From: a virus
Lineage: Duplodnaviria; Caudoviricetes
DNA: 46,389 nt
Direction: 5' to 3' (one strand)
IMG/VR virus record: IMGVR_UViG_3300037851_001501
Coordinates: 1-46,389 of that record
In this document: positions 2,862-18,092 of the stretch, one piece after another
How positions within the stretch are numbered: position 1 is the stretch's first letter
How the letters are laid out: every line of letters starts with the position of its first letter
Position numbers and translations under genes: made by a program
The notes under the pieces: model-generated
What the model saw: the letters and a program-made list of their open reading frames with translations, nothing else
Databases searched by the model: none
What the model was told of the DNA's origin: nothing

Positions 2862-3245
2862 GTGATGATCCTACTCAATTTCTCTCACCCGCTCACGCCT
2901 GCACAGATCGCCCAGGCCGCCGCGCTGGCCGGGCAGCCCATCGAAACCGTGGTGGACCTGCCCGTGCATTTCGACGGCGGGCAGCCCTTTGTGGCCCAAC
3001 TCCACACCTTGGCCGCGCGCATCCCGCTAGACGCCGCTACGCTGCAAACCGCGCCCATACTGGTTAACCTGCCCTCGCTCAACTTCATCGCTGGCCTGCT
3101 GCTGGCCGAGCTGCACGGGCGCATAGGCTACTTCCCCACCATCCTGCGCCTGCGGCGGGTGGATGACAGCCTTCCGCCACGCTTTGAAGTGGCGGAGTTG
3201 CTGAACCTGCAAGAGGCGCGCGACCAGGCGCGCCAGGCTCGGTAG
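2862..3245 (+). CDS. csx15: Csx15-like CRISPR-associated Rossmann-fold protein (putative cOA binder/ring nuclease)
   Basis: N-terminal ILLNFSHPLT motif, LVNLP(S)L, LAELHGRIGYFPTILRLR and FEVAELLNLQ..R..AR match my recollection of the Csx15 family; GGAGG RBS. Confidence 0.8.
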   Translation: MMILLNFSHPLTPAQIAQAAALAGQPIETVVDLPVHFDGGQPFVAQLHTLAARIPLDAATLQTAPILVNLPSLNFIAGLLLAELHGRIGYFPTILRLRRVDDSLPPRFEVAELLNLQEARDQARQAR

Positions 3246-3275: not shown

Positions 3276-3309
3276 GATTATCAACCTTACACGATTATCA
3301 ACCTTACAC
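3276..3309 (+). repeat. 17-bp tandem duplication GATTATCAACCTTACAC x2
   Basis: Exact copies at 3276-3292 and 3293-3309. Confidence 0.95.
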
Positions 3310-3311
3310 CT

Positions 3312-3381
3312 TTCACAGTGGTCGTGGTGACGCCTTACGACGGAGCAATCGGGACTAACTATTAATAACTATTAATTATGA
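3312..3381 (+). repeat. 70-bp direct repeat A, copy 1 (copy 2 at 4366-4435)
   Basis: TTCACAGTGGTCGTGG(T/G)GACGCC...TAACTATTAATAACTATTAATTATGA with 1 mismatch; 3254-3272 also matches 4351-4368 with a 1-nt indel. Confidence 0.95.
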
Positions 3382-3449
3382 ATTGCTATCGGGACAAGTT
3401 CAGCGGGACGGTGTTCTGTAAGCCCGCAGTGAAGCCATACCCGGCGCCG
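3378..3449 (+). repeat. 72-bp direct repeat B, copy 1 (copy 2 at 5206-5277)
   Basis: ATGAATTGCTATCGGGAC...CCCGGCGCCG is identical in both places. Confidence 0.95.
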
Positions 3450-3501
3450 GAGCGCGGGCGCGCCGCCGTTGTGCGCCTGCTCGAAGCGGCGGGATGAAGC
3501 T

Positions 3502-4419
3502 ATGAAAGCGTATAAGATTGTTAATGAAGTAGATGGGCATCGCGGGTTGTTCTACCACAAGGGCTACAACGAAGACCCGCGCCCGTTCAACCCGTCGGGG
3601 GATTGTGAACCCGGCGGTATCTACTACGCCAGGGAGGATACCCTGGCGTTCCTCGGTTATGGGAACGCCGTCTACCGGGTAACGCCGGTGGGCGAAGAAT
3701 ACGCCAACCCCATCCCGCCGCGCAAGTATAAGGCGCACGCCGTAATCTTAGAGCGGGTCGGTGAGGTCTCCGACCTGGCGGTTATCCGCCTGGTCTTAGC
3801 TGAGGGCGCAAACGTCCACGCCGGCAACGATCGTGCCCTGATGTGGGCGGCAACGAACGGGCATACCGACGTGGCGCGCCTGTTGCTGGATGCAGGCATG
3901 GATGCCCAAGCGTGCAACGGCGCGCTGCTGCGGGCGGCGGAGAATGGGCGCGCCGCCATTGTGCGCCTGCTCCTGGATGCCGGCGCGGATGTTCACGTGT
4001 ATTCCGACGCGCCGCTGCAGTGGGCGGCGGAGAATGGGCGCGTTGAGGTTATGCGCCTGCTCCTGGAGGCAGGCGCGGATGTCCACGCCGATAACAACTA
4101 CGCGCTGCGGCTGGCGGTGCATCAAGGGCACGCCGAATGCGTGCGCCTGCTCCTGGATGCCGGCGCGGATGTCCGCGCCTGTCGCAACGAGGCATTAATG
4201 GCGGCGGCGGAGAACGGGCACGCCGAATGCGTGCGCCTGCTGCTGGCGGCGGGCGCAGATGTTCACGCCGGCGATGACGCTGCGCTGCGCCTGGCGGCTA
4301 AGCGGGCGCACACAGAATGCGTTCGCCTGCTCGTTGAGGCAGGCGCGGGAACGGAATCGGAGCCGTTCACAGTGGTCGTGGGGACGCCTTACGACGGAGC
4401 AATCGGGACTAACTATTAA
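3502..4419 (+). CDS. Ankyrin-repeat protein
   Basis: About 6 repeats of GADVHA..D.AL..AAENG..ECVRLLL.A; likely start at ATG 3502 (MKAYK). Confidence 0.9.
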   Translation: MKAYKIVNEVDGHRGLFYHKGYNEDPRPFNPSGDCEPGGIYYAREDTLAFLGYGNAVYRVTPVGEEYANPIPPRKYKAHAVILERVGEVSDLAVIRLVLAEGANVHAGNDRALMWAATNGHTDVARLLLDAGMDAQACNGALLRAAENGRAAIVRLLLDAGADVHVYSDAPLQWAAENGRVEVMRLLLEAGADVHADNNYALRLAVHQGHAECVRLLLDAGADVRACRNEALMAAAENGHAECVRLLLAAGADVHAGDDAALRLAAKRAHTECVRLLVEAGAGTESEPFTVVVGTPYDGAIGTNY

Positions 4420-4435
4420 TAACTATTAATTATGA
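4351..4435 (+). repeat. Direct repeat A, copy 2
   Basis: Matches 3254-3272 joined to 3312-3381; supplies the C-terminus and stop of the ankyrin gene. Confidence 0.93.
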
Positions 4436-4447
4436 GTAGGAGGCGGG

Positions 4448-5086
4448 ATGTTTTCTAAGGATCTGCAACGAGGGTTGATTCAGTGGACGGTGGCGTACAG
4501 CGGCCACGAGGCTCAGCGACATTATATCGGGCTGAGCGGGATTGGGGATTGCGAACGGGTCATCTACGACCGCTTCCGGCAGGGGACGCGGGCGACGGTG
4601 GAGGATCACTTGCTTTGCCGGTTGAGCTATGAGCTGGAGGGGCGGCTGGTAGAGCGGCTGAAGGAGATGGGGGTATACAGCGTCGGGGAGGAGATCGTGC
4701 TCTTCGATGGGCTGGTGCAGGGGCATACGGACGGGGTAATTGGGCGGCAGGATCTGCTGGAGATCAAGACATTGGCGCAGGAACGTTGGATTCCGGAGGG
4801 ACGGAAGCTGCCGGGGCGAGTGTTCTGGCAGGTGCAGGCGTACCTGCATTACACGGGGCGGAAATATGGGCATATCGTGTATCTGGCGAGGGACACGGGG
4901 CTGATCTATACGACGGGGGTGTCGTACAGCGAGGGGGTGGGGCGCAAGATTGAGGAGAAGGTGGGGAGGCTGGTGGAGGCGGCGATGGCGTACAGTCGCC
5001 CGGCGTGTACATGCGGGCGTTGTGAAAATAATGGTCATCAGAATGCCGCCGGCCTTCAGCTCGGCGGCGAAAGGAGCGAATCATGA
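4448..5086 (+). CDS. Solo Cas4-like PD-(D/E)XK exonuclease
   Basis: SGIGDCER (first Cys), GHTDG...LLEIKT, QVQAY, C-terminal CTCGRC (three further Fe-S Cys). Confidence 0.8.
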   Translation: MFSKDLQRGLIQWTVAYSGHEAQRHYIGLSGIGDCERVIYDRFRQGTRATVEDHLLCRLSYELEGRLVERLKEMGVYSVGEEIVLFDGLVQGHTDGVIGRQDLLEIKTLAQERWIPEGRKLPGRVFWQVQAYLHYTGRKYGHIVYLARDTGLIYTTGVSYSEGVGRKIEEKVGRLVEAAMAYSRPACTCGRCENNGHQNAAGLQLGGERSES

Positions 5087-5292
5087 GTACGAGGGTTTTG
5101 TTGGCGGTGTTGATTGCAGTCGTCGCTCTGGCATGGGCAGCGGCGGCATTGGGGTCTTCGGCGGGAGAGCGGGTGTATCTGCCGCTGGTGGCGCGCGCGC
5201 CGGCGATGAATTGCTATCGGGACAAGTTCAGCGGGACGGTGTTCTGTAAGCCCGCAGTGAAGCCATACCCGGCGCCGTTGCAGTTTCGCTAA
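5083..5292 (+). CDS. Small secreted/membrane protein with VYLPLV motif
   Basis: Signal-peptide-like N-terminus; RVYLPLVAR resembles the Chloroflexota YLPL sorting motif; AAGGAG RBS. Confidence 0.7.
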   Translation: MSTRVLLAVLIAVVALAWAAAALGSSAGERVYLPLVARAPAMNCYRDKFSGTVFCKPAVKPYPAPLQFR

Positions 5293-5313: not shown

Positions 5314-6540
5314 ATGCTTACGCAGAGAATACAGGTGCAGGCAATTGCAGACAGGATGGCGGGTCTGCCGGTGAAGGGGAACATGCGCCGGTTGACCGAG
5401 CCGTGGTTGAGTTGCTGGAAGGCGCTGGATGGAGCGGCAGCGGGGCAGTATCACAATGCGCTGATGGAGGCGCTACAGGAATTTCCGGATCGGGGGGTCA
5501 TCATGGAGCAGATCCTGGCGGCGCGTCCGGGGGCAGCGCTGGGAGAATATGCGAGCCTGGAAGAACTGGCGAAAGACCTCCCGCCTATCGAGTGGGTGTG
5601 GAGGGGTTGGATTCCGAGGGGGATGATAACGCTGTTGGGAGCGGCGCCAGGGGCGGGGAAGTCGTTCCTGGCGTTGGACCTGGCAAAGCGGATTGTCCAG
5701 CATGAGTCGTGGCCGGACGGGCAGGTGAACACGTCGCAGCGGAGGAATATCTTGTATGTGGACGCGGAGCAAGTGCCCCAACTGGCGAATGAGCGGGCAT
5801 TAAGTTGGGGTATTCCGCGGAGTAAGTTGTATTTTCTGCTGCCCGAGGCAGACGATATGATTGATTTCGGTAAGCCAAGATACCGGGACCTGCTGACGGA
5901 GATGGCATACCAATTACAGCCGGAATTGGTGATCCTGGATTCCCTCAGCTCAATTTCGTCAAAGGGGGAGAACAACGTCGAGGATGTTCGCGTTGTTCTT
6001 GGGTTCTTGAACATGCTGGCGCAGGAGTATAAGGTGGGTTTGGTGCTAATCCACCATTTGAGGAAGGGAAGTAATAATGGGCAGTTGAAACTGTGGGATG
6101 TGAGCATGGACGATTTTAGGGGGAGCGGTCACATCATTGCAATGGCGCGCTCGGTGATGGGGGTGAGCGTGGTGCAGACGGCGGCGGAGGCGGACCGAAA
6201 CGGGCCGCGGAAGGTGGAGATCATCAAGACAAACCTGGGGCCGTATCCCGAAGCGCTAGGGTTTGAGTTTGCGCCGCTGCATCCAAAGGGGGTATTTTTG
6301 AACTGGGGCAATGCTCCGCAGGCTTATCACGAGCCGACGAAGGAGGAGGAGTGCCGCGAGTGGCTGTTGATGTTAATCACGAACGCGCCGGAGGGGATTA
6401 AACCGAAAGAGGCGGTGGAGGCGGGGGAGGAATACGGGTATGCGCGGGCGATGATCTACCGGGCGCGGAATGAGTTGAAGGCGCAAATAGTCAACACGCT
6501 GGGGAGGAAGCACCCAGAGAACTTGTGGAAGCGGAAGTGA
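5314..6540 (+). CDS. AAA_25/RepA-like (RecA-fold) replicative helicase/ATPase
   Basis: Walker A GAAPGAGKS, YVDAE, Walker B VILDS, LIHHLRK, FRGSG. Confidence 0.88.
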   Translation: MLTQRIQVQAIADRMAGLPVKGNMRRLTEPWLSCWKALDGAAAGQYHNALMEALQEFPDRGVIMEQILAARPGAALGEYASLEELAKDLPPIEWVWRGWIPRGMITLLGAAPGAGKSFLALDLAKRIVQHESWPDGQVNTSQRRNILYVDAEQVPQLANERALSWGIPRSKLYFLLPEADDMIDFGKPRYRDLLTEMAYQLQPELVILDSLSSISSKGENNVEDVRVVLGFLNMLAQEYKVGLVLIHHLRKGSNNGQLKLWDVSMDDFRGSGHIIAMARSVMGVSVVQTAAEADRNGPRKVEIIKTNLGPYPEALGFEFAPLHPKGVFLNWGNAPQAYHEPTKEEECREWLLMLITNAPEGIKPKEAVEAGEEYGYARAMIYRARNELKAQIVNTLGRKHPENLWKRK

Positions 6541-6570
6541 TGAGATCGTGAGGGCGATGATGGAATATTG

Positions 6571-6674
6571 TACTGTCTCAACTGTCTCAAGAGTTTACTG
6601 TATTAAGACACCCCCCCTTAATTTACGACTGGGAGTGTCTGAGACTCTTAACTGTTGAGACTCCTGAGACAGTT
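6571..6674. other. Putative replication origin (GTCTCA/TGAGAC repeats, AT-rich core)
   Basis: Two GTCTCA then three TGAGAC; 15-bp inverted repeat 6580-6594/6660-6674 (14/15 match); lies between helicase and primase. Confidence 0.5.
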
Positions 6675-6686
6675 CACGGAGGATTT

Positions 6687-7862
6687 ATGTACGATCTTGA
6701 ACAGATACGGGAACGGGTGAGCTTGCAGGCGCTGGCGGAAGAGGCCGGGGCGCAATTTCGGAACGGGTCGAGCCGATGTCCGCTGCATGGGGGGGATAAT
6801 ACTTCGGGATTCCATCTGTACGACGGCGGGAGGCGCTGGCATTGTTTCACGCGCTGTTCGGCGCCAGATAACGATGGTGACGTGTTCAATTTTTACATGC
6901 GGTGGAAGGGTGTGGACTTCGAGACTGCGGTGGAGGAATTGGGGCGCCTGGCGGCGGTAGCGCCGGCTGTGACGGGTGAGAGGATGGTATTTGCTCCGCC
7001 GGCGGATGCGCCGACGCCGCCCAGCGAGCGGTGGCAGGAGCGGGCGAAGCAATTCGTAAGCTATGCGGAGAAGGAACTGGCGAAGGAGGGGGGGAGGGCG
7101 GCGCGGGCTTATCTATACTCGGAGCGCGGGCTGAGGGAGGAGACGTGGCGGGCGTTCCAGTTGGGGTATTGCCCGCAAGACATTTACGATACGCCGCTGC
7201 GCTGGGGCCTGGATGGGAAGAAGATTTGGCTGCCCAGAGGGATTGTGATCTCTGGGTGGTCAGGGGGGAATTTATGGTACGTGAAGATCCGTCGTCCGAT
7301 GGGGGATCGGGACGAGAAGGGGGAGTTGACGGATGCGCTGGCGCAGTACATTAAGCCGGCGGTGGTGCTGCCAGAGGTGAAGTTTGGGGGGGCGAGAGGA
7401 AATAAGGCAACGCTGTTTGGATCGGAGTTGCGGTTGGGGTATCCGGTGGCGCTGCTGGTGGAGGGGGAGTGGGATGCAATGCTGGCGTGGCAGGAGGGGC
7501 ATGATTTTTGCGATGTGATGACGCTAGGCGGGGGGAAGACGCGGGCCGATTTGCTGGATCTCGCGGCGCTGGCGTGCTATCCGATCATCATTTCGGTGTA
7601 CGACGCGGATGAGACGGGAGACCAGGCGCGAGAATACTGGTTGAATGCGCCAGGGCTGGGACAACGGGTGAGCGTGGCAGTTCCGCCGGATCACGACTTG
7701 TCTGATTTTTTTCGGAAGGGGGGAAACTTACGGAAATGGCTGGCGCGGCTGGTGGAGGGGCGGATGGGTGAGTGGATGGCGGGGATGGACCGGGAGCGTT
7801 GGGGAGAGGCGGGCGAGCGGCTGGATGCGGTATGGCAGCAGTTGGAGGAGGCGGTGAAGTGA
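6687..7862 (+). CDS. DNA primase (CHC2 zinc finger + TOPRIM)
   Basis: CPLH...WHCFTRC zinc finger; LVEGEWDAM and YDADETG TOPRIM motifs. Confidence 0.9.
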   Translation: MYDLEQIRERVSLQALAEEAGAQFRNGSSRCPLHGGDNTSGFHLYDGGRRWHCFTRCSAPDNDGDVFNFYMRWKGVDFETAVEELGRLAAVAPAVTGERMVFAPPADAPTPPSERWQERAKQFVSYAEKELAKEGGRAARAYLYSERGLREETWRAFQLGYCPQDIYDTPLRWGLDGKKIWLPRGIVISGWSGGNLWYVKIRRPMGDRDEKGELTDALAQYIKPAVVLPEVKFGGARGNKATLFGSELRLGYPVALLVEGEWDAMLAWQEGHDFCDVMTLGGGKTRADLLDLAALACYPIIISVYDADETGDQAREYWLNAPGLGQRVSVAVPPDHDLSDFFRKGGNLRKWLARLVEGRMGEWMAGMDRERWGEAGERLDAVWQQLEEAVK

Positions 7863-7869
7863 TGAGACG

Positions 7870-7906
7870 AGCGCCCTCACCCTGCCCTCTCCCATGGGGA
7901 GAGGGG
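7870..7906. repeat. REP-like palindrome CCCTCACCC...CCCTCTCCC-N3-GGGAGAGGG, copy 1
   Basis: 24 bp identical to 37107-37130; hairpin. Confidence 0.8.
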
Positions 7907-8049
7907 AAGAATGGACGGGTAGCTCCGATAACAATCCTTAGCGGAAGGGTCTCCCCTACCCCGCGGGTATGTCGGGGGGCGGGGATGGTGGATGGTAATG
8001 CACGCTTTTTGGCGTACGCAAGCAGGCATGATGGCAGGCTGGAGGAGCG

Positions 8050-8373
8050 ATGAAGCGAACGAGTAGGGTTATATTGCCGGAGATCGTTGAAGTTCCGTTC
8101 GAGTGCGCGCCTGAGCGGATGGGTCTAGAGCCGGGTTGCATGCGTTACCGGATGGGACGGTTGACGATCTTCGTTGGGCGGCTGCCGATAAGCGGGGAGT
8201 ATCACTTGAGCATTTCTCATCCGACGCGTTATCCGACCTGGGACGAGATCGCAGAGGCGCGTTACAAGCTGATCCCGGACGAGTGCACGATGGGGTTGTT
8301 ATTGCCGGCGCGGGGACGATATGTGAATATCCACCACAATTGTTTTCATCTATACCAGGTGAAGGAAGAGTAG
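8050..8373 (+). CDS. Conserved phage hypothetical protein
   Basis: HLSISH..RYPTWDE...YVNIHHNCFHL pattern typical of a widespread phage family; GGAGG RBS. Confidence 0.75.
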   Translation: MKRTSRVILPEIVEVPFECAPERMGLEPGCMRYRMGRLTIFVGRLPISGEYHLSISHPTRYPTWDEIAEARYKLIPDECTMGLLLPARGRYVNIHHNCFHLYQVKEE

Positions 8374-8376
8374 GGC

Positions 8377-8994
8377 ATGGGCGACGATTATTCTCGACTG
8401 AGGGAGCCGATCTTCTACGCGGTGGTGGCGGCGGCGATGCTGATTTGGGGGACGAAGGACGAGAATATGCCGGACTGGCTGCGGTTGTTTCTGATTACGG
8501 TGGGGGCGATCTTTGCATTTGCGGCGTCGGTGACGGCGCTGGACTTCGTGACACGGCGGGTAGCAGCGCGGATGGAGGATTTGTCGCTGGCGAAGACTGC
8601 TGGGCCGCGGATGCTGGCCGCGGCGCTGAAGGGACTGTCGGCTGCGCAGACGGATTTCGTGGGGCGGATGAGCGCTGTGACGATCAGCGGGATTGTGTCA
8701 AGCCAGGGTCCGGCGTGGGCGCTACGGGGGGCGGTGTGCGATATTCCGTTGGAGTTTGCGGATGACTTTCTGACGGCCAGCGAGGAGACGGCGCCATATT
8801 TATGGCCGGAACGGCGGGCGGGGGAGATCGGTGGGGAGAGCGGTTGGGCGAATGCGCGGCAGTACTGTGTGGAGTTGACGAATTTGCTGACGGCAAACGG
8901 CTGGGCCGAGAGGGCCGTGGGTCCGTATGCGGCGAAGCTGAGCGCGGATGTGACGTTGGAGCATCTGCGGGTGTATTTGGGTGTGGCACAGTAA
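8377..8994 (+). CDS. Membrane protein (2 N-terminal TM helices)
   Basis: Two hydrophobic helices followed by a soluble domain. Confidence 0.65.
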   Translation: MGDDYSRLREPIFYAVVAAAMLIWGTKDENMPDWLRLFLITVGAIFAFAASVTALDFVTRRVAARMEDLSLAKTAGPRMLAAALKGLSAAQTDFVGRMSAVTISGIVSSQGPAWALRGAVCDIPLEFADDFLTASEETAPYLWPERRAGEIGGESGWANARQYCVELTNLLTANGWAERAVGPYAAKLSADVTLEHLRVYLGVAQ

Positions 8995-9007
8995 AGGAAA
9001 ATGGGAG

Positions 9008-9199
9008 ATGGACAAGCGAGTTGGAAATCAGGCGTCGCGCTATTATAGGCAAAGCGATGATCCCTTTGTGAATAAACGCCTTCGGTGGGATGAATTTGCT
9101 AAATGCCCTCGTTGCAACAGGGATTACCGGATTGGGTTCGAGGTTATCCGTCGCGGCGGGGCAAAGCATTGTCCGTATTGTAACGAAAGGGTAGGATAG
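9008..9199 (+). CDS. Small zinc-ribbon protein
   Basis: CPRC...CPYC. Confidence 0.55.
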   Translation: MDKRVGNQASRYYRQSDDPFVNKRLRWDEFAKCPRCNRDYRIGFEVIRRGGAKHCPYCNERVG

Positions 9200-9203
9200 T
9201 CGC

Positions 9204-9968
9204 ATGGACTCAGAGTTGAGCGGGCTTGTGGATACGGCGTGGCTTGTCAGTCCGATGATCCTGCTGGCCGTGATCGTATTTTTCCGTATAGGCGCGTGGA
9301 AGTGGGGGCTAGGAACATTGGGCGCGTGGGGGATATACGGCGGAATCGTCACGATGGCGGACGGTATCGCCAATCCAGAGTTGCAGGCGGAGACGGGGAT
9401 GACTACCTTCCAGACTGCGATGGTTGGGATGTGCGTGGCCCCGGCGGTGATGCTTGTGCTAGGGATAATTGGCGTACTGGTATTCAATGTGGTGTTCGGA
9501 GAGGGCGGGCCGCGCCGCAGAGAGGGGCAAATAGATATGGATTGGCTGGTGGATCACGAGAGGGTAAGGCCGGGAAGGTCGGACGACGCTGTGATCGCAG
9601 TAGCGGAGATAGTGGAGCAGGTGCGTGGCGGGCATCGCCAGGATATGGAAGGTCGCTTGCGCGGCCTGCATATCCAAGTGCAGCGGGGGGAAGATCACAA
9701 TGTACTTGCGCACGCGAGGTACTTGCGCGAGTACGGCGGACAGTTCGGCGTGTCCATCGCCTGCGATAACGCCAGCGATGAGGCTTACATCTCCACGCCG
9801 TCCACGCAACTGCCTCCCACCACCGACGGAGGGACGTGGGCAAGTCGCGGGCGCGGCGGGGTGACTGCATCGGTGAAGGATGGGGAGTCTCTCGAGGAGG
9901 CGATGCGGAGGTACAACGCGCGTGAAGATGCGCAAGAGAGGGAGCGCGAGGCAAGGAGGCTGCGATGA
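9204..9968 (+). CDS. Membrane protein (about 3 TM helices)
   Basis: Hydrophobic N-terminal half; ATGA overlap with parB. Confidence 0.6.
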   Translation: MDSELSGLVDTAWLVSPMILLAVIVFFRIGAWKWGLGTLGAWGIYGGIVTMADGIANPELQAETGMTTFQTAMVGMCVAPAVMLVLGIIGVLVFNVVFGEGGPRRREGQIDMDWLVDHERVRPGRSDDAVIAVAEIVEQVRGGHRQDMEGRLRGLHIQVQRGEDHNVLAHARYLREYGGQFGVSIACDNASDEAYISTPSTQLPPTTDGGTWASRGRGGVTASVKDGESLEEAMRRYNAREDAQEREREARRLR

Positions 9969-10849
9969 TGTCATTAATTCCGATGGAGCTGGTGTTGCCG
10001 AATCCGGAGCAGCCGCGCAAGGTCTTCGACGATGATGAGATGGCGGCTTTGGCGGAGAGCATCAGGGACCATGGGGTGATGCTGCCGATTTTAGTAGAGA
10101 AGAAGGAGGGGGGCGAATATATCTTGCATGACGGGGAGCGGCGGCTGCGGGCGGCGAAGATGGCGGGGCTGGAGATGATTCCGGCGATGGTGATGGAGGG
10201 GGAGGGGGATGCGCGGCTGCGGCTGGAACGGGCGCTGGCGGCGAATTTGCAGCGGGCGGACCTGACGCCCATCGAGGAGGGGATGGCGTATCAGCGGATG
10301 CAGAACGAGTTGGGGCTGAGCCTGGCGGAGATCTGCCGGCGGGTGGGGAAGAGCCGGGCGCGGGTGGAACAGCGGTTGCTATTGCTGCAGTTGGATGCGC
10401 CGATTCAGGAATTGATTAGCAAGAAGGAGCTGCACCAGGATGCGCGGCTGGCGGAGGCGCTATTGGGGATTCCCAGCCCGGAGGCGCGGGTGAAGACAGC
10501 GAGGGGGCTGGCGCTGCGAGGGGCGAGCTTGAGGGCGAGTGTGCAGGCGGCGGTTATGGTGCGAGAGCGTCTGGCAGAGTTGAGCGGGAACGGGCGGGGA
10601 GGGGCGGCTGAGGCGGCGATGGTGGAACTGGGGATGAAGCGCGCCGGGGTGACGCGGAAGCCGATGGGTTGGGATATGCTACGGCAGGCGGGGAAGCTGC
10701 CGCCGTGGGAGGCGGTTACGGAGGCGGCGCGGCAGACGTGCGATGGATGCGTGCTGCGGGATGTGGCGAGCAACGATGTCTGCGGGCAGTGTCCGGGTGT
10801 GGAGTTAATCAAACTGCTGGTGGAGACGGGAAAGCATGAACAGTATTGA
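9965..10849 (+). CDS. parB: ParB/Spo0J-family protein with C-terminal Cys cluster
   Basis: PNPEQPRK.F, SIRDHGV..PI, DGERRLRA, ANLQRADLTPIEE, HTH; C-terminal CDGC...CGQC. Confidence 0.9.
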   Translation: MMSLIPMELVLPNPEQPRKVFDDDEMAALAESIRDHGVMLPILVEKKEGGEYILHDGERRLRAAKMAGLEMIPAMVMEGEGDARLRLERALAANLQRADLTPIEEGMAYQRMQNELGLSLAEICRRVGKSRARVEQRLLLLQLDAPIQELISKKELHQDARLAEALLGIPSPEARVKTARGLALRGASLRASVQAAVMVRERLAELSGNGRGGAAEAAMVELGMKRAGVTRKPMGWDMLRQAGKLPPWEAVTEAARQTCDGCVLRDVASNDVCGQCPGVELIKLLVETGKHEQY

Positions 10850-12038
10850 TGCCATGGTAGAGGCGATCACGACGATGGCGGCGCTGGAGAGCGGGGTGCC
10901 GGCGAGTGTGCTGCAGGCGCGAGGAGGGATCAACCCGGTTGCGGCGCTAGGGTACGGGGCATGGAGGCCAATGTTGGCGCATTGGCTGCCGGAGGAGGAG
11001 GCGTACTTAAGGGAAAAGATGGGGGAGGGGGAAATGACAGACGCAGAGATCGGGGCGGCGCTGGGACGGTCGGCGGAGGCGGTGAGGATTCGCCGGCAGA
11101 AGAGGGGATTCCCGGCGCGCTCGAAGAGGCCGGGGTGGCTGACGGGACATCAGGCGGCGAAGAGGATGGGGTGGGATGTGCATAAGGTGATTATGTTGGC
11201 GAGCCGAGGGCTGCTTCGATGCGAGAGGCTTCCCGGTCAACGCGGGATACTGACGATCCGCGAGGAGCGGCTGGAGCGGTGGGCGCTGGATCCGGTAAAT
11301 TGGGTGTATTTCACGCACGAGAAGGTGTGTGATGAGCGCCTGCGGCGTCTATTGAAGCGGCGGGCGGAGCGGTGGGGGGATGCGTGGTGGACGACGGGGC
11401 AGGCGGCGGCGTGGCACGGGGTGGAGGCTGCGGTGGTGCAACGAGCTATCGAGCGAGGGGAGATTCCGGCGGTTAAGTGGGGGAATTGGTGGGTGAGGCG
11501 GAGCGATATGCTGCGGCTGGGGCTTTATTTTGCGAAGAATAAGGGGGGCGGGCATGTGGAGGCGTGGAGCGATGAAGGGGATGCGTTTATGACGCTGTCG
11601 AGGGCGGTGGGGTTGAGTTGGCAGGCGACGGCGCGGTTGATGGGCCGGAAGCATGTGTCGTTCCGCTGGCAGCGGATGTGGGAGGAGGGGCAGCAGCGGG
11701 TGTTGGTGGATAAATATGGCTATGAGGTGGAGGTGGACGAGGAGCGGCGGTTGGTGTGGGCGGATTGGCGGGTGTACGCGGGCCGCTTTCCGGCGGTGAG
11801 GCGGGCGATGGAGAAGTTCAGGCGGTGGATAGATGGGGATCGGGGGCTGTTTGCGGGGAGTTTTCGACGGGGGGAGGAGGTATCCCAGGATTTATTGGTG
11901 GTGCGGGGAGTGTTGGCAAACTGGGCGCTGTGGTACGGTTTGGATGCCAAGTTGAGTTTTGCGTGCCATCGTCCGGGCAGGCTGGAACGGGCGGTAGAAG
12001 CGCTGCGAGGGTTAGGCGCGGATCCGCTGGGAAGATAA
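10836..12038 (+). CDS. Multi-HTH DNA-binding protein (excisionase/MerR-like domains)
   Basis: W..EEE..L...IGAALGRS..AVR HTH; two xis-like segments (LTGHQAAK..., TTGQAA...IERGEIPAVKWG.WWV). Confidence 0.7.
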   Translation: MNSIDAMVEAITTMAALESGVPASVLQARGGINPVAALGYGAWRPMLAHWLPEEEAYLREKMGEGEMTDAEIGAALGRSAEAVRIRRQKRGFPARSKRPGWLTGHQAAKRMGWDVHKVIMLASRGLLRCERLPGQRGILTIREERLERWALDPVNWVYFTHEKVCDERLRRLLKRRAERWGDAWWTTGQAAAWHGVEAAVVQRAIERGEIPAVKWGNWWVRRSDMLRLGLYFAKNKGGGHVEAWSDEGDAFMTLSRAVGLSWQATARLMGRKHVSFRWQRMWEEGQQRVLVDKYGYEVEVDEERRLVWADWRVYAGRFPAVRRAMEKFRRWIDGDRGLFAGSFRRGEEVSQDLLVVRGVLANWALWYGLDAKLSFACHRPGRLERAVEALRGLGADPLGR

Positions 12039-12048
12039 TGGAGATTAG

Positions 12049-12876
12049 ATGATCTGTCGTATTTGCGGGAATGATGGTATTGGGAGCGAGTGGTCTTCCT
12101 GGGTGAGCGATACATTCACCAATTATGACTTGCTCCTGCCCGGAGAGATAATCTGCGATGACTGCCGATTCTGGTTCGGCCAAAAATCGGACGAGTTGCA
12201 GCGGCGCATGAGAAAGGACAAGCCCCAGAAGATGCAGAACTACTCCCACTTCATCATCGGCGGGGAATGGCGTCCGGTGGGCAAGGGCGACAAGTCGGCG
12301 ATGGCGCAGATACTAACCACGCCGCCATTCCCCGAGATGGCGGCGGTGGCCGTCAGCGGGCAGAAGCATCTGGCCTTCCGGGCGCGGCGCAACCCGCCCG
12401 GCGGCAGCGCTGGATGGGTGCAATACGAGGAGCAGGCCGTCTGGGTGATCCAGGACGACCTGCGGGGATTGCTGAAGTCCATCGAGGCCTTATATGCAGG
12501 GTTCAGCAAGAGCGAGATCGAGAGCGGGCGCTATTTCCCGCAGCGCATCTTGCGGTTTGGCGTGGATCGCTGGCAAGAGTTAGAGGCATGTATTAAGCAC
12601 AAACGGTCAACCGTTATATTTTCTCTGGCGCTGTTCATGGCGCAAAGGAGCGAAGATGGAAACGACGAAGGAGCAGGCGGTAGCACTTCTCAAGTTGATC
12701 TGGCGGGGCGTACCGCCGGCATACAAGAGCCGTTACCGGATGACGATCTGGGAGCAATTCGAGAACGAAATCCGCAGCGCGGCATACACGAGCGACGTGG
12801 GGCGGTTCATCAGCTCTCTATGTTCCCATCTGGGGGCGAGAATAGGGAACACGGCAGGCGAGCGCGAAGAAGCTGA
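12049..12876 (+). CDS. csf1: Type IV CRISPR Csf1 (Cas8-like large subunit)
   Basis: CRIC...DTFTNYD...ICDDC zinc finger and SGQKH motif; first gene of the csf operon. Confidence 0.8.
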   Translation: MICRICGNDGIGSEWSSWVSDTFTNYDLLLPGEIICDDCRFWFGQKSDELQRRMRKDKPQKMQNYSHFIIGGEWRPVGKGDKSAMAQILTTPPFPEMAAVAVSGQKHLAFRARRNPPGGSAGWVQYEEQAVWVIQDDLRGLLKSIEALYAGFSKSEIESGRYFPQRILRFGVDRWQELEACIKHKRSTVIFSLALFMAQRSEDGNDEGAGGSTSQVDLAGRTAGIQEPLPDDDLGAIRERNPQRGIHERRGAVHQLSMFPSGGENREHGRRARRS

Positions 12877-13027
12877 TGCTCTGTTGGCTGCAGTCGATGA
12901 GCGAGAGATGCTGCGATTGTTACGCACTGAGACTACCTTGCTGGTGCTATCGGTGCGGGTAGGTAACCAGGCACGGAGAGATCAGTGGGATGCTGCGCAT
13001 TCTGCCGAGGAGGAGTATGATGTCTAG
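12656..13027 (+). CDS. cas11: Type IV-B small subunit (Cas11-like)
   Basis: 123-aa helical protein (IW..F...IRSAA...FISSLC) between csf1 and csf2; AAGGAG RBS. Confidence 0.72.
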   Translation: METTKEQAVALLKLIWRGVPPAYKSRYRMTIWEQFENEIRSAAYTSDVGRFISSLCSHLGARIGNTAGEREEADALLAAVDEREMLRLLRTETTLLVLSVRVGNQARRDQWDAAHSAEEEYDV

Positions 13028-13994
13028 TTATATGTTTGAGGGCGTGGTAACTGCGCTAACCAGTATCAGTCACATCGGCGACACTTTCGGCGTCAACGCG
13101 AAGCTGCGCCGCGAGAAGATCATTCAGCCCGACGGGACGGTGGAGGACGTGCCCGTCATTAGCGGCAACAGCGTGAGGGGCATCCTGCGTGACCGCGGGA
13201 TGCTGCACATGCTCTATGTGCTAGGGTATGGGATCGATAAGGAGACGGGAGAGGTAAGCGGATTATCGTTGCCAGCCTTCTACTTCCTTTTCTCCGGCGG
13301 TTCGTTGACCAAGATTGCCGGCCACGGGATTGACGTGGACGAGGCGCGCCGTTGGCGGCGTGCTATCCCGCTGGTAGCGATTTTCGGCGGGGCGATGGGT
13401 AACCAGATCATGCCTGGTAAATGTAAGATCGGCAAGCTGATCCCTATCTGTCAGGAGACGGCGCATTTGATCCCACCGCGCTTCGTTAGGGAGACAAAGA
13501 GCATTTGGGACTTGTGCCAGGAGGAGGCGTACACGCGGCGGGACGATGAGAAAAACGAGAACATACGCCAACTGATTGCGCCTGAGGTGCGTATGCTCCT
13601 GGAGGCAAGCGCGGCTGATAAGAGGGCGCAGGTATTGAGCGGTGATGAAGAGATCGCCGGGGCAACGGGCGCAAAGCAGCAGATGCGCTATTATGTCGAG
13701 ACGCTGGCGGCGGGGACGCAACTCTATTGGGAGATCGTTCTGGACGACGTAACGGAGGTGGAGTTTGATGCCTTCTGCGTTACGTTAGCCGAGTTCGGGA
13801 GATTCCCTTATCTCGGGGGGAAAAGCGGCGTGGGGCATGGCAAGGTTACGGTCAAATTCGATCATTGGTACGAGATCAACCCGCGCCTGGGGGTCAACGG
13901 CAAAGAGCTAGATGTATCGCTGGGGACTAAGTACATGCAGCATCTTAGCGACCACAGGGAGGAGATCAAGGGGATGATTGATGGATTACAGTAA
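13020..13994 (+). CDS. csf2: Type IV Csf2 (Cas7-family RAMP backbone)
   Basis: ALTSISH, VPVISGNSVRGILRD, LFSGG, PLVAIFGG, glycine loop LGGKSGVGHG. Confidence 0.9.
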   Translation: MSSYMFEGVVTALTSISHIGDTFGVNAKLRREKIIQPDGTVEDVPVISGNSVRGILRDRGMLHMLYVLGYGIDKETGEVSGLSLPAFYFLFSGGSLTKIAGHGIDVDEARRWRRAIPLVAIFGGAMGNQIMPGKCKIGKLIPICQETAHLIPPRFVRETKSIWDLCQEEAYTRRDDEKNENIRQLIAPEVRMLLEASAADKRAQVLSGDEEIAGATGAKQQMRYYVETLAAGTQLYWEIVLDDVTEVEFDAFCVTLAEFGRFPYLGGKSGVGHGKVTVKFDHWYEINPRLGVNGKELDVSLGTKYMQHLSDHREEIKGMIDGLQ

Positions 13995-14670
13995 CTTGTT
14001 GGTTACAGCCCATTTGCGCGCTCCGGTAGTGGCCGATTGTTGGCTGCCGCTAGACGGCATCCTGTTCTACCAGCACGTCCGCGCCGATCTGGGGGCGCAG
14101 GAGATGACCGTGCCCGGACAATCGGCCCAGCCGAAGGGAGCGCCGATCAAGGGCGGGCGGCTACCCATTGCGATTGTGCATGATAAGCACTGGTATTATC
14201 GCTGCTCCTGGGCGCATTGGGGGCCGCACGTGGATGGGCAGGATCATTGGGTCAAGCGTTTTGACAATGGCTTCGCTGACCTGGTGGACTTCCACGGCCG
14301 GCGCGGGCGAGTAGATACCAGCGCTGCCGCATATAGGGCGTATCACATGCCGGTCAACTATCGCAGCGCCTTGTACGTACAGTGGTATTGCGTGGCTGAT
14401 TATGATTGCCTTGCGCCGCTTTTAGCCGCCGTCACTCATATCGGCAAAAAGGCGGCGCAGGGCTGGGGGCGGGTGTCGCTCTGGGAGGTGGAGCGCATGG
14501 ATTGTGATCGGTCTATCTGGGATGGCGAGCAGCGTCTAATGCGTGGCATCCCTGTCTATCATGCGCGGGGAGGGGAGCCGCGCGGGATATATGGCATCAA
14601 GCCTCCCTACTGGGACAGGCGCAACCAGATGGAGTTGGCAATGCCAGGGGGCAAGGATGCAGTCGCTTAG
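13978..14670 (+). CDS. csf3: Type IV Csf3 (Cas5-family RAMP)
   Basis: LPLDGIL, glycine loop HIGKKAAQGWG, C-terminal KPPYW. Confidence 0.85.
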   Translation: MMDYSNLLVTAHLRAPVVADCWLPLDGILFYQHVRADLGAQEMTVPGQSAQPKGAPIKGGRLPIAIVHDKHWYYRCSWAHWGPHVDGQDHWVKRFDNGFADLVDFHGRRGRVDTSAAAYRAYHMPVNYRSALYVQWYCVADYDCLAPLLAAVTHIGKKAAQGWGRVSLWEVERMDCDRSIWDGEQRLMRGIPVYHARGGEPRGIYGIKPPYWDRRNQMELAMPGGKDAVA

Positions 14671-15388
14671 CGCGCTGGGCGCATTACGTGGTTGGCGACG
14701 CAAGGCGATTCGTGCGCGGGGAGTTATAGCCCAAGCGCTGAGGAATGACGCTCTCTGGTGTGTGTCATTCTCCGGAGGCAAGGACAGCACCGTGCTGCTG
14801 GACTTGACCTTGGCGGTCAAGCCTGATCTGGATATTATCTGGTTCGATGACGGTTGGGATTACCCTGAAACTATCTCCTTCCTTGCGGCGGTCGAGGCGC
14901 GGCTTGGCCGCCGCATACTCAGGGTGGAAATGCCTGTCCGGTCGTCATTTTGGGGCCGCGAGATAGCGTATGGAGGCGATGATCCGAGCTACAGCCATGC
15001 CTGCGACATGGATTACGAGGCGTGGGCGCGACAATACACCGGTGCGTTAATCGGGATGCGCAAAGAGGAGAGTAAACAGAGGTATTTCACCCTCCTGAGG
15101 AGGGGAGAGGTATATTACCACAAGGGGCTAGGGCATTGGCATTGCTGCCCCCTAGCCTCGTGGACATGGCAGGATGTGTGGGGGTATATCCTCGGCAACG
15201 GTCTGTCCTATAACCCGGTATATGACCGGCTAGAGAAGTTAGGAGTTGCGCCGGCTCAAGCCAGGGTTGGGCCGCTTACAGCCTGGATGGTCTACCAGTA
15301 TGGCGCGCTGGCAACGCTCAAGCGCGGCTGGCCGGATTTATACAACCGCTTTTGCGCTGCGCATCCAGAGGCGCGCGCATATGGATAG
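14657..15388 (+). CDS. cysH: CysH/PAPS-reductase-like protein (type IV-B signature)
   Basis: PP-loop SFSGGKDS, GMRKEES..R, PL..WTWQDVW.YI...L.YNPVYD; overlaps csf3. Confidence 0.88.
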   Translation: MQSLSALGALRGWRRKAIRARGVIAQALRNDALWCVSFSGGKDSTVLLDLTLAVKPDLDIIWFDDGWDYPETISFLAAVEARLGRRILRVEMPVRSSFWGREIAYGGDDPSYSHACDMDYEAWARQYTGALIGMRKEESKQRYFTLLRRGEVYYHKGLGHWHCCPLASWTWQDVWGYILGNGLSYNPVYDRLEKLGVAPAQARVGPLTAWMVYQYGALATLKRGWPDLYNRFCAAHPEARAYG

Positions 15389-15390
15389 GA

Positions 15391-16059
15391 CTATATGGAG
15401 CGGATTTTTCGCCCATGGCGGGGACGATGGTCAAGGTAATGGTTGAATCCCTCGTAGGGGATCAGCCAGTCACGTCCGACCTTGCGCGCGCCGGGAATGT
15501 GACCTGCGGCGGCGGCATGACGGATACCCCTGGCAGTGGCCTTTTCGCCCACCGCCAGCGCATACTCCTCGGCTTGGGCAACGTTTATCTCGTTGTTTTT
15601 CTGACCCTTGACCGGCGGCTCTCCGCCGATCTTACCGAGTTTTGCGCCGTAATTCCAGTGCCCGGCGTCGTCGCTGCCGGCCAGGGCTTGATCCGCCCAA
15701 TCGTCGGGCATGATCCAGCCCAGGTCGTCCACGATCTTGATGCTGCGGATCATCTCCGGCGGCATCTTGATCCCGGTCGGCACGTTATCGTCACTCCACC
15801 ACCCCTTATAAGTGTCGTCGTCGGGACAAGCGTGCCATGCAGTTGCAGTGATCAGGATGGCATTGCGGGGCAGCCCCCCCATGCCAGCAGGGGCGCTCAT
15901 CTGGGCAGACTGCCCAATAGGGCGCGCCCAGATGATGTTATGCCGCTCGTCCACGACGCCGATGCCCCAGCGTCCCTTGTCGTCCTGGACAAGATACTGC
16001 CTGGTCACTACGGCCAGGCTCGGCCAGCGGTAGATTGGGAGTTGATTAGGGGTTTTCAT
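15391..16059 (-). CDS. Protein with C-terminal excisionase-like (HTH_17) DNA-binding domain
   Basis: IRHAAAAGHIPGARKVGRDWLIP...RPR.GR. Confidence 0.7.
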   Translation of the reverse strand: MKTPNQLPIYRWPSLAVVTRQYLVQDDKGRWGIGVVDERHNIIWARPIGQSAQMSAPAGMGGLPRNAILITATAWHACPDDDTYKGWWSDDNVPTGIKMPPEMIRSIKIVDDLGWIMPDDWADQALAGSDDAGHWNYGAKLGKIGGEPPVKGQKNNEINVAQAEEYALAVGEKATARGIRHAAAAGHIPGARKVGRDWLIPYEGFNHYLDHRPRHGRKIRSI

Positions 16060-16347
16060 CTAGTTAGCTCCGCAGTCGCCGTAGCAATAGGAGTGACACT
16101 GGCTGCACCAGCCGCTGCGGGCAGGCTTGGATGCAGCCAGCGTTTGGGTATCGTCAACGCTGAGGTATCCGCCGCTCATGCTCAGCAACTTGTTGACTTT
16201 CTCTACATCCACGATCCACACCTTGTTCAGGCTGTCCCACTTACCGCCAAGATAGGTGCGGATGTAATCTTTGACCGGGTAAGTATTGCCGCTGAGGTTG
16301 TTGCCGTTGAGTGTCAGTCCAGTAGTTTGCCGAATTTTGAGTTTCAT
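16060..16347 (-). CDS. Small protein with GNTYPVKD/GGKWD module and C-terminal Cys cluster
   Basis: AAGGAG RBS then ATG at 16347; GNTYPVKD..LGGKWD..KVW; CSQCHSYCYGDC. Confidence 0.75.
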   Translation of the reverse strand: MKLKIRQTTGLTLNGNNLSGNTYPVKDYIRTYLGGKWDSLNKVWIVDVEKVNKLLSMSGGYLSVDDTQTLAASKPARSGWCSQCHSYCYGDCGAN

Positions 16348-16375
16348 TTTCTGCTCCTTGGTCGTCAATATATAT

Positions 16376-16403
16376 ATAATACCGCATACGGCACATTAGT
16401 CAA
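16376..16403 (-). promoter_or_regulatory. Sigma70-type promoter for the reverse cassette, with an internal inverted repeat (possible operator)
   Basis: TTGACT-N16-TATTAT on the - strand; spacer contains CCG-TATG-CGG. Confidence 0.6.
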
Positions 16404-16463
16404 GAGGGAATTTCATGGTCTGGTTTAGCACCGCTAATGGACCTTAGCGGAATGGAGGGCAGA

Positions 16464-17009
16464 ATGAAATGCCGGGAGAAAAGGGAGAGACCGATCTTGT
16501 TTTCGTGCGCGATGATTGTGGCAGTCCTGGAAGGGAGGAAAACGCAAACCAGGCGAGTGGTGAAACATCATCCTGGCACAGTCGTAGTCGATTCAGGAGA
16601 GCCTCTGGCGCGTATTATTACTCTGGATCGCTATATCCTTGCGCCTTATCAGGCTGGCGATGTGTTATGGGTGCGCGAGAAGTGCATTATTCACGCTGAG
16701 CCTACAGAGCGTGAGCCAGGTTTGATCTATTACGCAACCGAGTTTGCTGTTGGGGCTACTGCCGAGAGGTGGACGCCGGCGATATTTATGCCACGTTGGG
16801 CGAGCCGCATAAGCCTGCGTGTGATGGATGTCAGAGCAGAGAGACTCCGGACGATCACTGAGGCAGATGCGGTACAGGAGGGGTTTGGGGATGTATCACA
16901 GTTCGCCGAGTATTGGGATCGTCTCAACGAGAGCAGGGGCTATGGATGGGCGCTAAACCCCTGGGTATGGGTGTACAGCTTTGTCCCCATGATGAAGGCC
17001 AACGGATGA
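16464..17009 (+). CDS. ASCH/PUA-like phage protein
   Basis: RPILFS..M..A.LEGRKTQTRR, GDVLWVRE, W.P.IFMPRWASRI, NPWVWV. Confidence 0.85.
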   Translation: MKCREKRERPILFSCAMIVAVLEGRKTQTRRVVKHHPGTVVVDSGEPLARIITLDRYILAPYQAGDVLWVREKCIIHAEPTEREPGLIYYATEFAVGATAERWTPAIFMPRWASRISLRVMDVRAERLRTITEADAVQEGFGDVSQFAEYWDRLNESRGYGWALNPWVWVYSFVPMMKANG

Positions 17010-18064: not shown

Positions 18065-18092
18065 TTGACATTGGGTGGTAGGGTTGTATAAT
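18065..18092 (+). promoter_or_regulatory. Consensus sigma70-type promoter
   Basis: TTGACA-N16-TATAAT. Confidence 0.75.

Follow-up and report, generated by a model that had tools for sequence, protein, structure and literature searches.

A type IV-B operon in a phage record

The IMG/VR record IMGVR_UViG_3300037851_001501 is a Caudoviricetes sequence of 46,389 nucleotides, analysed at its full length and referred to here as the window; it contains five plus-strand genes, csf1, cas11, csf2, csf3 and a cysH-like gene, each overlapping its successor (Table 1). A first-pass annotation, made from the letters of the sequence, had described these as a type IV-B CRISPR-Cas effector operon. Both the gene set and the subtype were confirmed by the coordinates and by profile searches, in which PADLOC type IV models matched Csf1, Cas11, Csf2 and Csf3, and the Pfam model PAPS_reduct, named for phosphoadenosine phosphosulfate (PAPS) reductase, matched the CysH-like protein. 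Csf1 is laid out as a core of about 200 residues with N-terminal CxxC pairs, followed by a 75-residue tail. Against NCBIfam, Csf2 and Csf3 matched TIGR03115 (E 8e-19) and TIGR03116 (E 6e-17), each under the equivalog cut-off; Csf1 had no match in Pfam or NCBIfam. When the Csf2 profile was compared with the PDB, the IV-B Csf2 of 7JHY ranked first (E 9e-34), with IV-C and IV-A subunits after it; a match to Cas7c was set aside as a type IV-C subunit ranked behind 7JHY. Neither Csf1 nor Cas11 had a PDB sequence match.

Judged by its gene content, the operon belongs to subtype IV-B: a Csf2-type Cas7 stands together with csf1, csf3, cas11 and a cysH-like PP-loop gene, and array, DinG/RecD and adaptation genes are absent from the locus, as is Cas6 to the extent that an insensitive model (with a match in 2 of 14 control genomes) can tell. 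Beside the operon there is no DinG or RecD helicase, Cas6-like gene or array, as expected of IV-A or IV-D, and the 275-residue Csf1 is not the Cas10-like HD large subunit of IV-C. Searches of the whole record agreed with the earlier statement that array, cas1, cas2 and cas6 are missing: no repeat-spacer array was detected and no match to the Cas1, Cas2 or (with the same weak model) Cas6 families. No Rfam family matched the record either, and a synonymous-site scan gave no embedded RNA signal in the csf1 core, csf2, csf3 or cysH; in the 64 related loci described below, two-copy repeat candidates occurred in two, 3.5 and 4.6 kb off and neither adjoining. The phage-encoded RNA partner that had been suggested thus has no candidate in the array, Rfam or synonymous-site searches. 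Among relatives the order csf1-cas11-csf2-csf3 is preserved and Csf2 is highly conserved (median identity 68%), while the genes flanking the operon vary. A class-wide profile search of 401 genomes matched eight, strongly in just the two known before. By itself, then, the operon is ordinary, another phage-borne IV-B set.

An overprinted Csf1 tail under selection

The csf1 frame extends 221 nucleotides out of frame across cas11, past the end of the Csf1 core at about residue 200, a feature absent from the first-pass annotation. The composition of the tail encoded there suggests an accessible segment, and the pentapeptide QLSMF within it fits the published pentamer of beta-clamp ligands, Q-aliphatic-x-[L/M]-[F/L] (PMC11139829; papers are cited throughout for their accessible portions). 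In order to compare relatives, loci were gathered by Csf2 alone, because a tail-based search would bias the result. From 132 loci plus the window, 14 with a cut-off csf1 or cas11 were removed and exact duplicates merged, giving 79; grouping at 90% Csf2 identity left 65, and removal of one with ambiguous bases left 64. For the null model the Cas11 protein was held fixed and recoded synonymously with each locus's own codon use, and the motif was scored as Q-x-x-[LMIF]-[FLW], which is looser than the published pentamer.

The csf1 frame was open through the motif in 39 of the 64 loci, against 2.6 expected, and the motif was present in 35 of those 39 (3.2 expected); just 5 of 25 closed loci retained it (0.7 expected). 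Relatives below 70% Csf2 identity behaved similarly, with 9 of 19 open and the motif in all nine, against 1.1 expected. The per-position excess was greatest at Q (z 10.1) and F (z 9.4), values that stop avoidance and kinship inflate; residues Q1, L4 and F5 were fixed and position 3 was free, as in the published pentamer. The motif lay within four residues of the C-terminus in 25 of the 39 open loci, with stop codons returning in the csf1 frame right behind it, and, when all five genes were scanned, synonymous conservation rose above background solely at cas11 codons 1-56. Neighbouring open reading frames (ORFs; n=466) showed no excess, with the motif in the last 25 residues of 4 against 4.9 expected. 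Ten of the 29 close relatives lacking the main motif matched at another place in the tail, several of them with a hexamer at or close to a shortened end; in some truncated relatives the hexamer QLQIPL lies at or near the new end. Together these data indicate that the second reading frame and its motif are under selection. A frameshift fusion of Csf1 to Cas11 was rejected as the principal account, since cas11 is served by a ribosome-binding site of its own, and selection on the csf1 frame continues beyond the cas11 start. Two Csf1 homologs (P0225 and P0317) do run in frame into Cas11; these are either natural fusions or assembly frameshifts.

Distant Csf1 proteins were searched for with the core only, and among the 150 matches listed 120 reached the core end; the tail counts given here and below for distant Csf1 refer to these matches. 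A pentamer or hexamer occurred in 15 of 23 tails of 15-44 residues (0.6 expected) and in 37 of 43 tails of at least 45 residues (3.8 expected). In a set of 98 Csf1 proteins, 24 bear the motif on tails whose score against the overprint profile is below 15 bits, and on a tree of the 98 cores, built by a quick method, the motif labels were scattered with 14-22 changes, a range that does not translate into a number of origins. In Methylosinus sp. PW1 (L336) and in L342, csf1 stops before the cas11 start, yet the protein ends QLSLF; on a Rhodovastum plasmid it is Cas11, not Csf1, that ends in QLELFEAA. Four loci nearest the Thermococcus nautili plasmid system (L027, L300, L301 and L305) have Cas11 ends of the form [ND]-x-S-L-x-x-F, which we take to resemble the PCNA-binding PIP box; such an end was not seen in L302 or in three haloarchaeal-type loci. 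The motif recurs on unrelated tails and does not depend on the overlap.

We predicted the complex of a 39-residue Csf1 tail and a DnaN encoded in an Anaerolineales (Chloroflexota) genome where a related locus also occurs. The prediction scored 0.55, against 0.00 for the best of three controls, with contact agreement of at least 58% and a partner predicted local distance difference test score (pLDDT) of at least 44; no interface was reported. The mark that it passed was reached by 116 of 157 solved pairs and by 2 of 215 mismatched pairs; both of these mismatched pairs, and 18 solved ones, fall at scores of 0.60 or below. The pass may reflect memory, because peptide-clamp complexes have already been solved, and at best the prediction shows a likeness to clamp peptides. 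Taken with the motif evidence, we consider it likely that the Csf1 tail binds the beta clamp. A literature search, which lay largely outside subscription journals and did not extend to supplements, found no report of a clamp-like tail on Csf1 among the papers listed.

The CysH-like enzyme, its exchange and the phage setting

The CysH-like protein carries the PP-loop SGGKDS, and a PP-loop is kept in all 40 full-length homologs; the ECGxH redox motif is found in none of the 40 and is missing from the window protein, as the first-pass annotation had pointed out. Cys163 is kept in 35 of the 40 and the C-terminal helix is also conserved, although the family diverges faster than Csf2 (median identity 33% versus 68%). 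The protein scored 53.5 bits against TIGR00434, for which the cut-off is 165; lacking ECGxH and falling under the family cut-off, it is not assigned to the true PAPS or adenosine phosphosulfate (APS) reductases. Its predicted structure (pLDDT 89) matched FAD synthase with a Z of 16.6 (root-mean-square deviation 2.8, 163 residues aligned), APR-B with 16.1 and CysD with 15.8; since these are tied, adenylyl transfer is compatible with the fold without being singled out. Weak PADLOC matches to BrxP, SspD and DndC were also returned. The absence of ECGxH and the adenylyltransferase-tied fold uphold the earlier view that sulfate assimilation is unlikely, and its further suggestion, that RNA binding is coupled to nucleotide modification, is compatible with the data; PMC8175902 had already proposed that the CysH-like protein, with its PP-loop and lost catalytic cysteine, adenylates bound nucleic acid.

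The position of this enzyme is exchangeable. Three relatives have a TGT-like gene and no cysH in the available DNA (Table 1); no sequence in the PDB matches this TGT-like family, and in the Atlas DpdA is the nearest named cluster for 17% of its members, which serves as a lead only. Other relatives carry a long PAPS-family protein paired with ParB, an added kinase, an added glycosyltransferase or a second CysH, and 8 of 15 scanned genes after csf3 gave sigma-region-4 or helix-turn-helix (HTH) matches, several of them weak. Exchange among modifying enzymes favours nucleic-acid modification over guide sponging, and does not distinguish DNA from RNA.

Classified as a provirus, the record is 100% complete by CheckV. 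Genes for integrase, helicase, primase and ParB precede the operon and those for terminase, portal, head and tail follow it, as in a temperate phage, and the operon stands just ahead of the lysis and packaging genes. A Chloroflexota bacterium is the probable host, judging from three of four genome matches of Csf2 and from the named matches of the phage Csx15 described below, which are of the same phylum. No dnaN match was found in the record, nor a polymerase among 49 ORFs scanned against PHROGs, and therefore a host clamp would be used. A contig of the probable source run covers positions 6255-16500 with zero letter differences, which is not an independent confirmation; contigs of that run extend 2,044 and 1,140 bases past the record ends, and these approximately 3.2 kb lay outside the searches.

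Two further CRISPR-related genes were absent from the first-pass annotation. One, in the phage early region, encodes a Csx15 ring nuclease in which both histidine motifs align to 9TEU and whose closest named homologs are from Chloroflexi, making it a candidate anti-type III factor; the other encodes a Cas4-like exonuclease. Viral Csx15 is rare. It is described as not seen in phages in the accessible part of PMC13148439, and more than 20 viral homologs, untested in that work, are reported in the portion available of a 2026 preprint (10.64898/2026.10.26.761840). In our searches none of 52 candidate relatives of Csx15 in viral contigs was confirmed, and Csx15 occurred in the flanks of 0 of 138 IV-B loci. 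Since Csx15 is encoded by this phage as well, a general counter-defence setting for the operon is plausible.

Several further features were recorded (Table 1). Immediately behind the operon, a convergent module looks like a small accessory gene and regulator pair, and its homologs follow cysH in L003, L005, L010 and L018. A 20-nucleotide palindrome, CCGCTAA-N6-TTAGCGG, is present in eight mostly intergenic copies (0.05 chance matches expected) and is a candidate REP-like (repetitive extragenic palindromic) element or operator; a link to IV-B was rejected, as 0 of 181 related loci carry it, and a scan of viral sequences gave 118 scattered matches. A second dispersed hairpin family, a perfect sigma-70 promoter consensus ahead of the lysis and packaging block, and a probably spurious ARAGORN tRNA-Pro call within a tail ORF were also noted. 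Direct repeats flank an ankyrin-repeat gene and the Cas4-like exonuclease gene, in a region that resembles an exchangeable cassette and where the source-run contigs fragment.

Table 1. Coordinates of the operon, its overprinted tail and other features, in the window unless a related locus is named.
Feature	Position	Strand	Remarks
csf1	12049-12876	+	IV-B large subunit, 275 residues; PADLOC Csf1_0_IV E 9e-22 over residues 3-200
cas11	12656-13027	+	Small subunit, 123 residues; PADLOC Cas11_1_IV E 6e-28; own AAGGAG ribosome-binding site
csf2	13020-13994	+	Cas7-like backbone, 324 residues; second in-frame ATG at 13017; PADLOC E 4e-80
csf3	13978/13981-14670	+	Cas5-like, about 230 residues; PADLOC E 7e-52
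cysH-like	14657-15388	+	PP-loop enzyme, 243 residues; Pfam PF01507 (PAPS_reduct) E 1.6e-24
Dual-coding stretch	12656-12876	+	Csf1 tail over cas11; polar/acidic linker (69% DEGSPRKQN), then motif
QLSMF	12811-12825	+	Csf1 residues 255-259; beta-clamp-binding-motif-like pentapeptide
TGT-like gene	L107:3990-4700; L135:2856-3578; L306:3798-4468		No cysH in available DNA; phrog_7068 E 4e-6 for L107 only
Long PAPS-family and ParB pair	L308, L317		In accessory slot
Added kinase	L008		
Added glycosyltransferase	L128		
Csx15 gene	2862-3245	+	NF040560 E 1e-45, above cut-off
Cas4-like exonuclease gene	4448-5086		
Convergent two-gene module	15391-16368	-	Own promoter 16403-16376; 102-residue protein and 222-residue protein with C-terminal HTH
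Sigma-70 promoter consensus	18065-18092	+	12/12
20-nucleotide palindrome	7925, 16431, 22494, 27760, 31597, 35037, 38111, 45211		Eight copies
Hairpin repeat, about 46 nucleotides	7870, 37107, 40851		Three copies
Direct repeat, 86 nucleotides	3309/4363		91%
Direct repeat, 72 nucleotides	3378/5206		100%
Cassette-like region	3309-5277		
tRNA-Pro call	41205-41292	+	Probably spurious

A possible clamp-tethered complex and its relation to known systems

We reasoned that the Csf filament, by analogy with the complex of Mycobacterium sp. JS623, would assemble on RNA, and that the overprinted Csf1 tail would attach the resulting ribonucleoprotein to the beta sliding clamp of the host. The tethered complex would then carry the CysH-like enzyme to phage DNA that has just been replicated; there the enzyme is predicted to mark nucleic acid as self, for protection, by adenylation or some other modification. 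We favour this reading tentatively, at somewhat short of an even chance; clamp binding, recruitment of the CysH-like enzyme, DNA as its substrate and the protective purpose are each inferred steps, the first of them likely when taken alone, built on the gene set, the overlap, the selected frame and motif, the recurrence of the motif, the fold and motifs of the enzyme and the exchange of accessory genes, all of which are observed. A broader version seems possible rather than probable: the array-less IV-B systems of many phages would be replisome-coupled machines to which a clamp hook was added repeatedly, whether overprinted on cas11, carried by free Csf1 tails or by the ends of Cas11, or present in some archaeal-type loci as a PIP-box-like Cas11 terminus, with the filament delivering an exchangeable modifier to nascent DNA. 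If true, a CRISPR effector would have been converted into an epigenetic marking device. The selected clamp-binding motif points to a partner in the host and to where IV-B would act, and it is an example of overprinting that has produced a functional motif within a cas operon, a case that standard gene-by-gene annotation misses.

Several points weigh against this reading. The loci share ancestry, so that the counts are not independent, and the strict published pentamer was present in 27 of 39 open loci and QLxLF in 14 of 39, the scoring pattern having been looser. Any motif in the Csf1 tail was missing from 19 of the 64 close relatives, and in 54 of the 120 distant Csf1 the tail is shorter than 15 residues, with the motif in none of the 54. 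Nor was the clamp motif seen in JS623 (L029 and L344), Rhodococcus L345 or three haloarchaeal-type loci; the clamp is therefore not essential to IV-B generally, and the motif is optional. A Cas7/Cas11 filament on RNA is an odd tool for sequence-independent marking of DNA, and the substrate of the CysH-like enzyme could be RNA.

The tail might instead be real without being a clamp ligand, serving as a degron, as a docking site for another protein or as a by-product of Cas11 coding. The Cas11 residues F[IV][NS]xLC ease reaching the motif in the other frame, the DnaN score is weak and the motif is often missing; nevertheless, the recoding null was exceeded about tenfold, the motif recurs on non-overlapping tails and Cas11 C-termini, and both its fixed positions and its place near the C-terminus are those of a clamp ligand (PMC11139829), which makes this account quite unlikely. 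Clamp tethering could also serve RNA-guided interference, in which a guide supplied in trans, a host crRNA (CRISPR RNA) or an unseen phage RNA, would let the complex patrol replicating DNA and block or mark a competing element or genes of the host, with CysH acting as its effector or producing a signal. The Cascade-like subunits are all present in intact form and Csf2 is strongly conserved, the open-frame and motif counts fit equally, and type IV-A acts on DNA without a nuclease (PMC13676074). We nonetheless regard it as unlikely: the record offered no array, Cas6 (with the model noted above) or Rfam RNA, the related loci no adjoining repeat candidate and the csf1 core, csf2, csf3 and cysH no embedded RNA signal, and the JS623 complex held heterogeneous RNA (PMC7937560).

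The first-pass annotation had preferred a counter-defence or inter-element conflict complex that captures host crRNAs or a phage-encoded RNA. Read as a crRNA sponge or anti-CRISPR, the filament would sequester host guides, and tail and CysH would be secondary. This function was proposed in PMC8175902 and PMC7038947, and the Csx15 and Cas4-like genes indicate that the phage meets CRISPR pressure. Such a sponge gains no support from our data, however, and leaves the motif selection and the accessory enzyme slot unexplained; few crRNAs were bound in JS623 (PMC7937560), PMC7038947 itself calls it unlikely, and the flanks of the IV-B loci counted above yielded no Csx15, so that we find it decidedly unlikely. 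A role in replication-coupled control of phage transcription, with a clamp-bound complex acting on nascent transcripts or R-loops to time the late genes, would find a precedent in phage Mu, whose late transcription uses the beta clamp (PMC12867686), and would suit both the position of the operon just ahead of the lysis and packaging genes and the sigma- or HTH-like genes found after csf3. We hold this to be highly improbable, since no regulator is inserted in the window, the genes around the operon vary between loci, plasmids that lack late genes carry IV-B too and most related phages do without such a module.

Array-less IV-B loci with a cysH-like gene have been described on plasmids, sometimes on prophages (PMC7038947), and in viruses (PMC10848311), and in the accessible text of PMC13676074 the function of IV-B was still called unresolved in September 2026. 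Ribonucleoprotein filament assembly of IV-B subunits is known from JS623 alone (PDB 7JHY; PMC7937560): Csf2 and Cas11 formed a filament on heterogeneous RNA without sequence preference and with few crRNAs, and the portion available reports no density for Csf1 or Csf3. JS623 and the window share the csf1-cas11-csf2-csf3 order and the lack of array and Cas6, and the JS623 Csf2, the best PDB match, is about 32% identical to that of the phage. The JS623 locus is on a plasmid, however, with csf1 and cas11 separate and no motif, whereas the window operon is on a phage, directly adjoins a cysH-like gene and has the 221-nucleotide overlap with its clamp-like motif. Fuxivirus of Bathyarchaeia (PMC10848311) likewise combines the five-gene cassette, cysH-like gene included, with a separate Cas4-like gene in a tailed virus, but carries a mini-array where the window phage has none. 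Skermania phage SPI1 (KR011061) has the same five genes and a Csf2 36% identical, but its csf1 and cas11 overlap by only 14 nucleotides and there is no tail motif.

The CysH-like protein has its PP-loop and fold in common with DndC, SspD, BrxP, FAD synthase and CysD; it differs in being shorter, in lacking ECGxH and in having no sulfur-relay genes nearby. With established beta-clamp clients (Pol III alpha, QADMF; Pol V, QLNLF; Pol IV; Hda; PMC11139829) Csf1 shares the pentamer, a polar linker and a near-C-terminal site, but here the motif sits on a Cas large subunit and is written over another gene, and client status is predicted. A IV-B operon in a phage was thus already known; the tail with its clamp motif is the new part.

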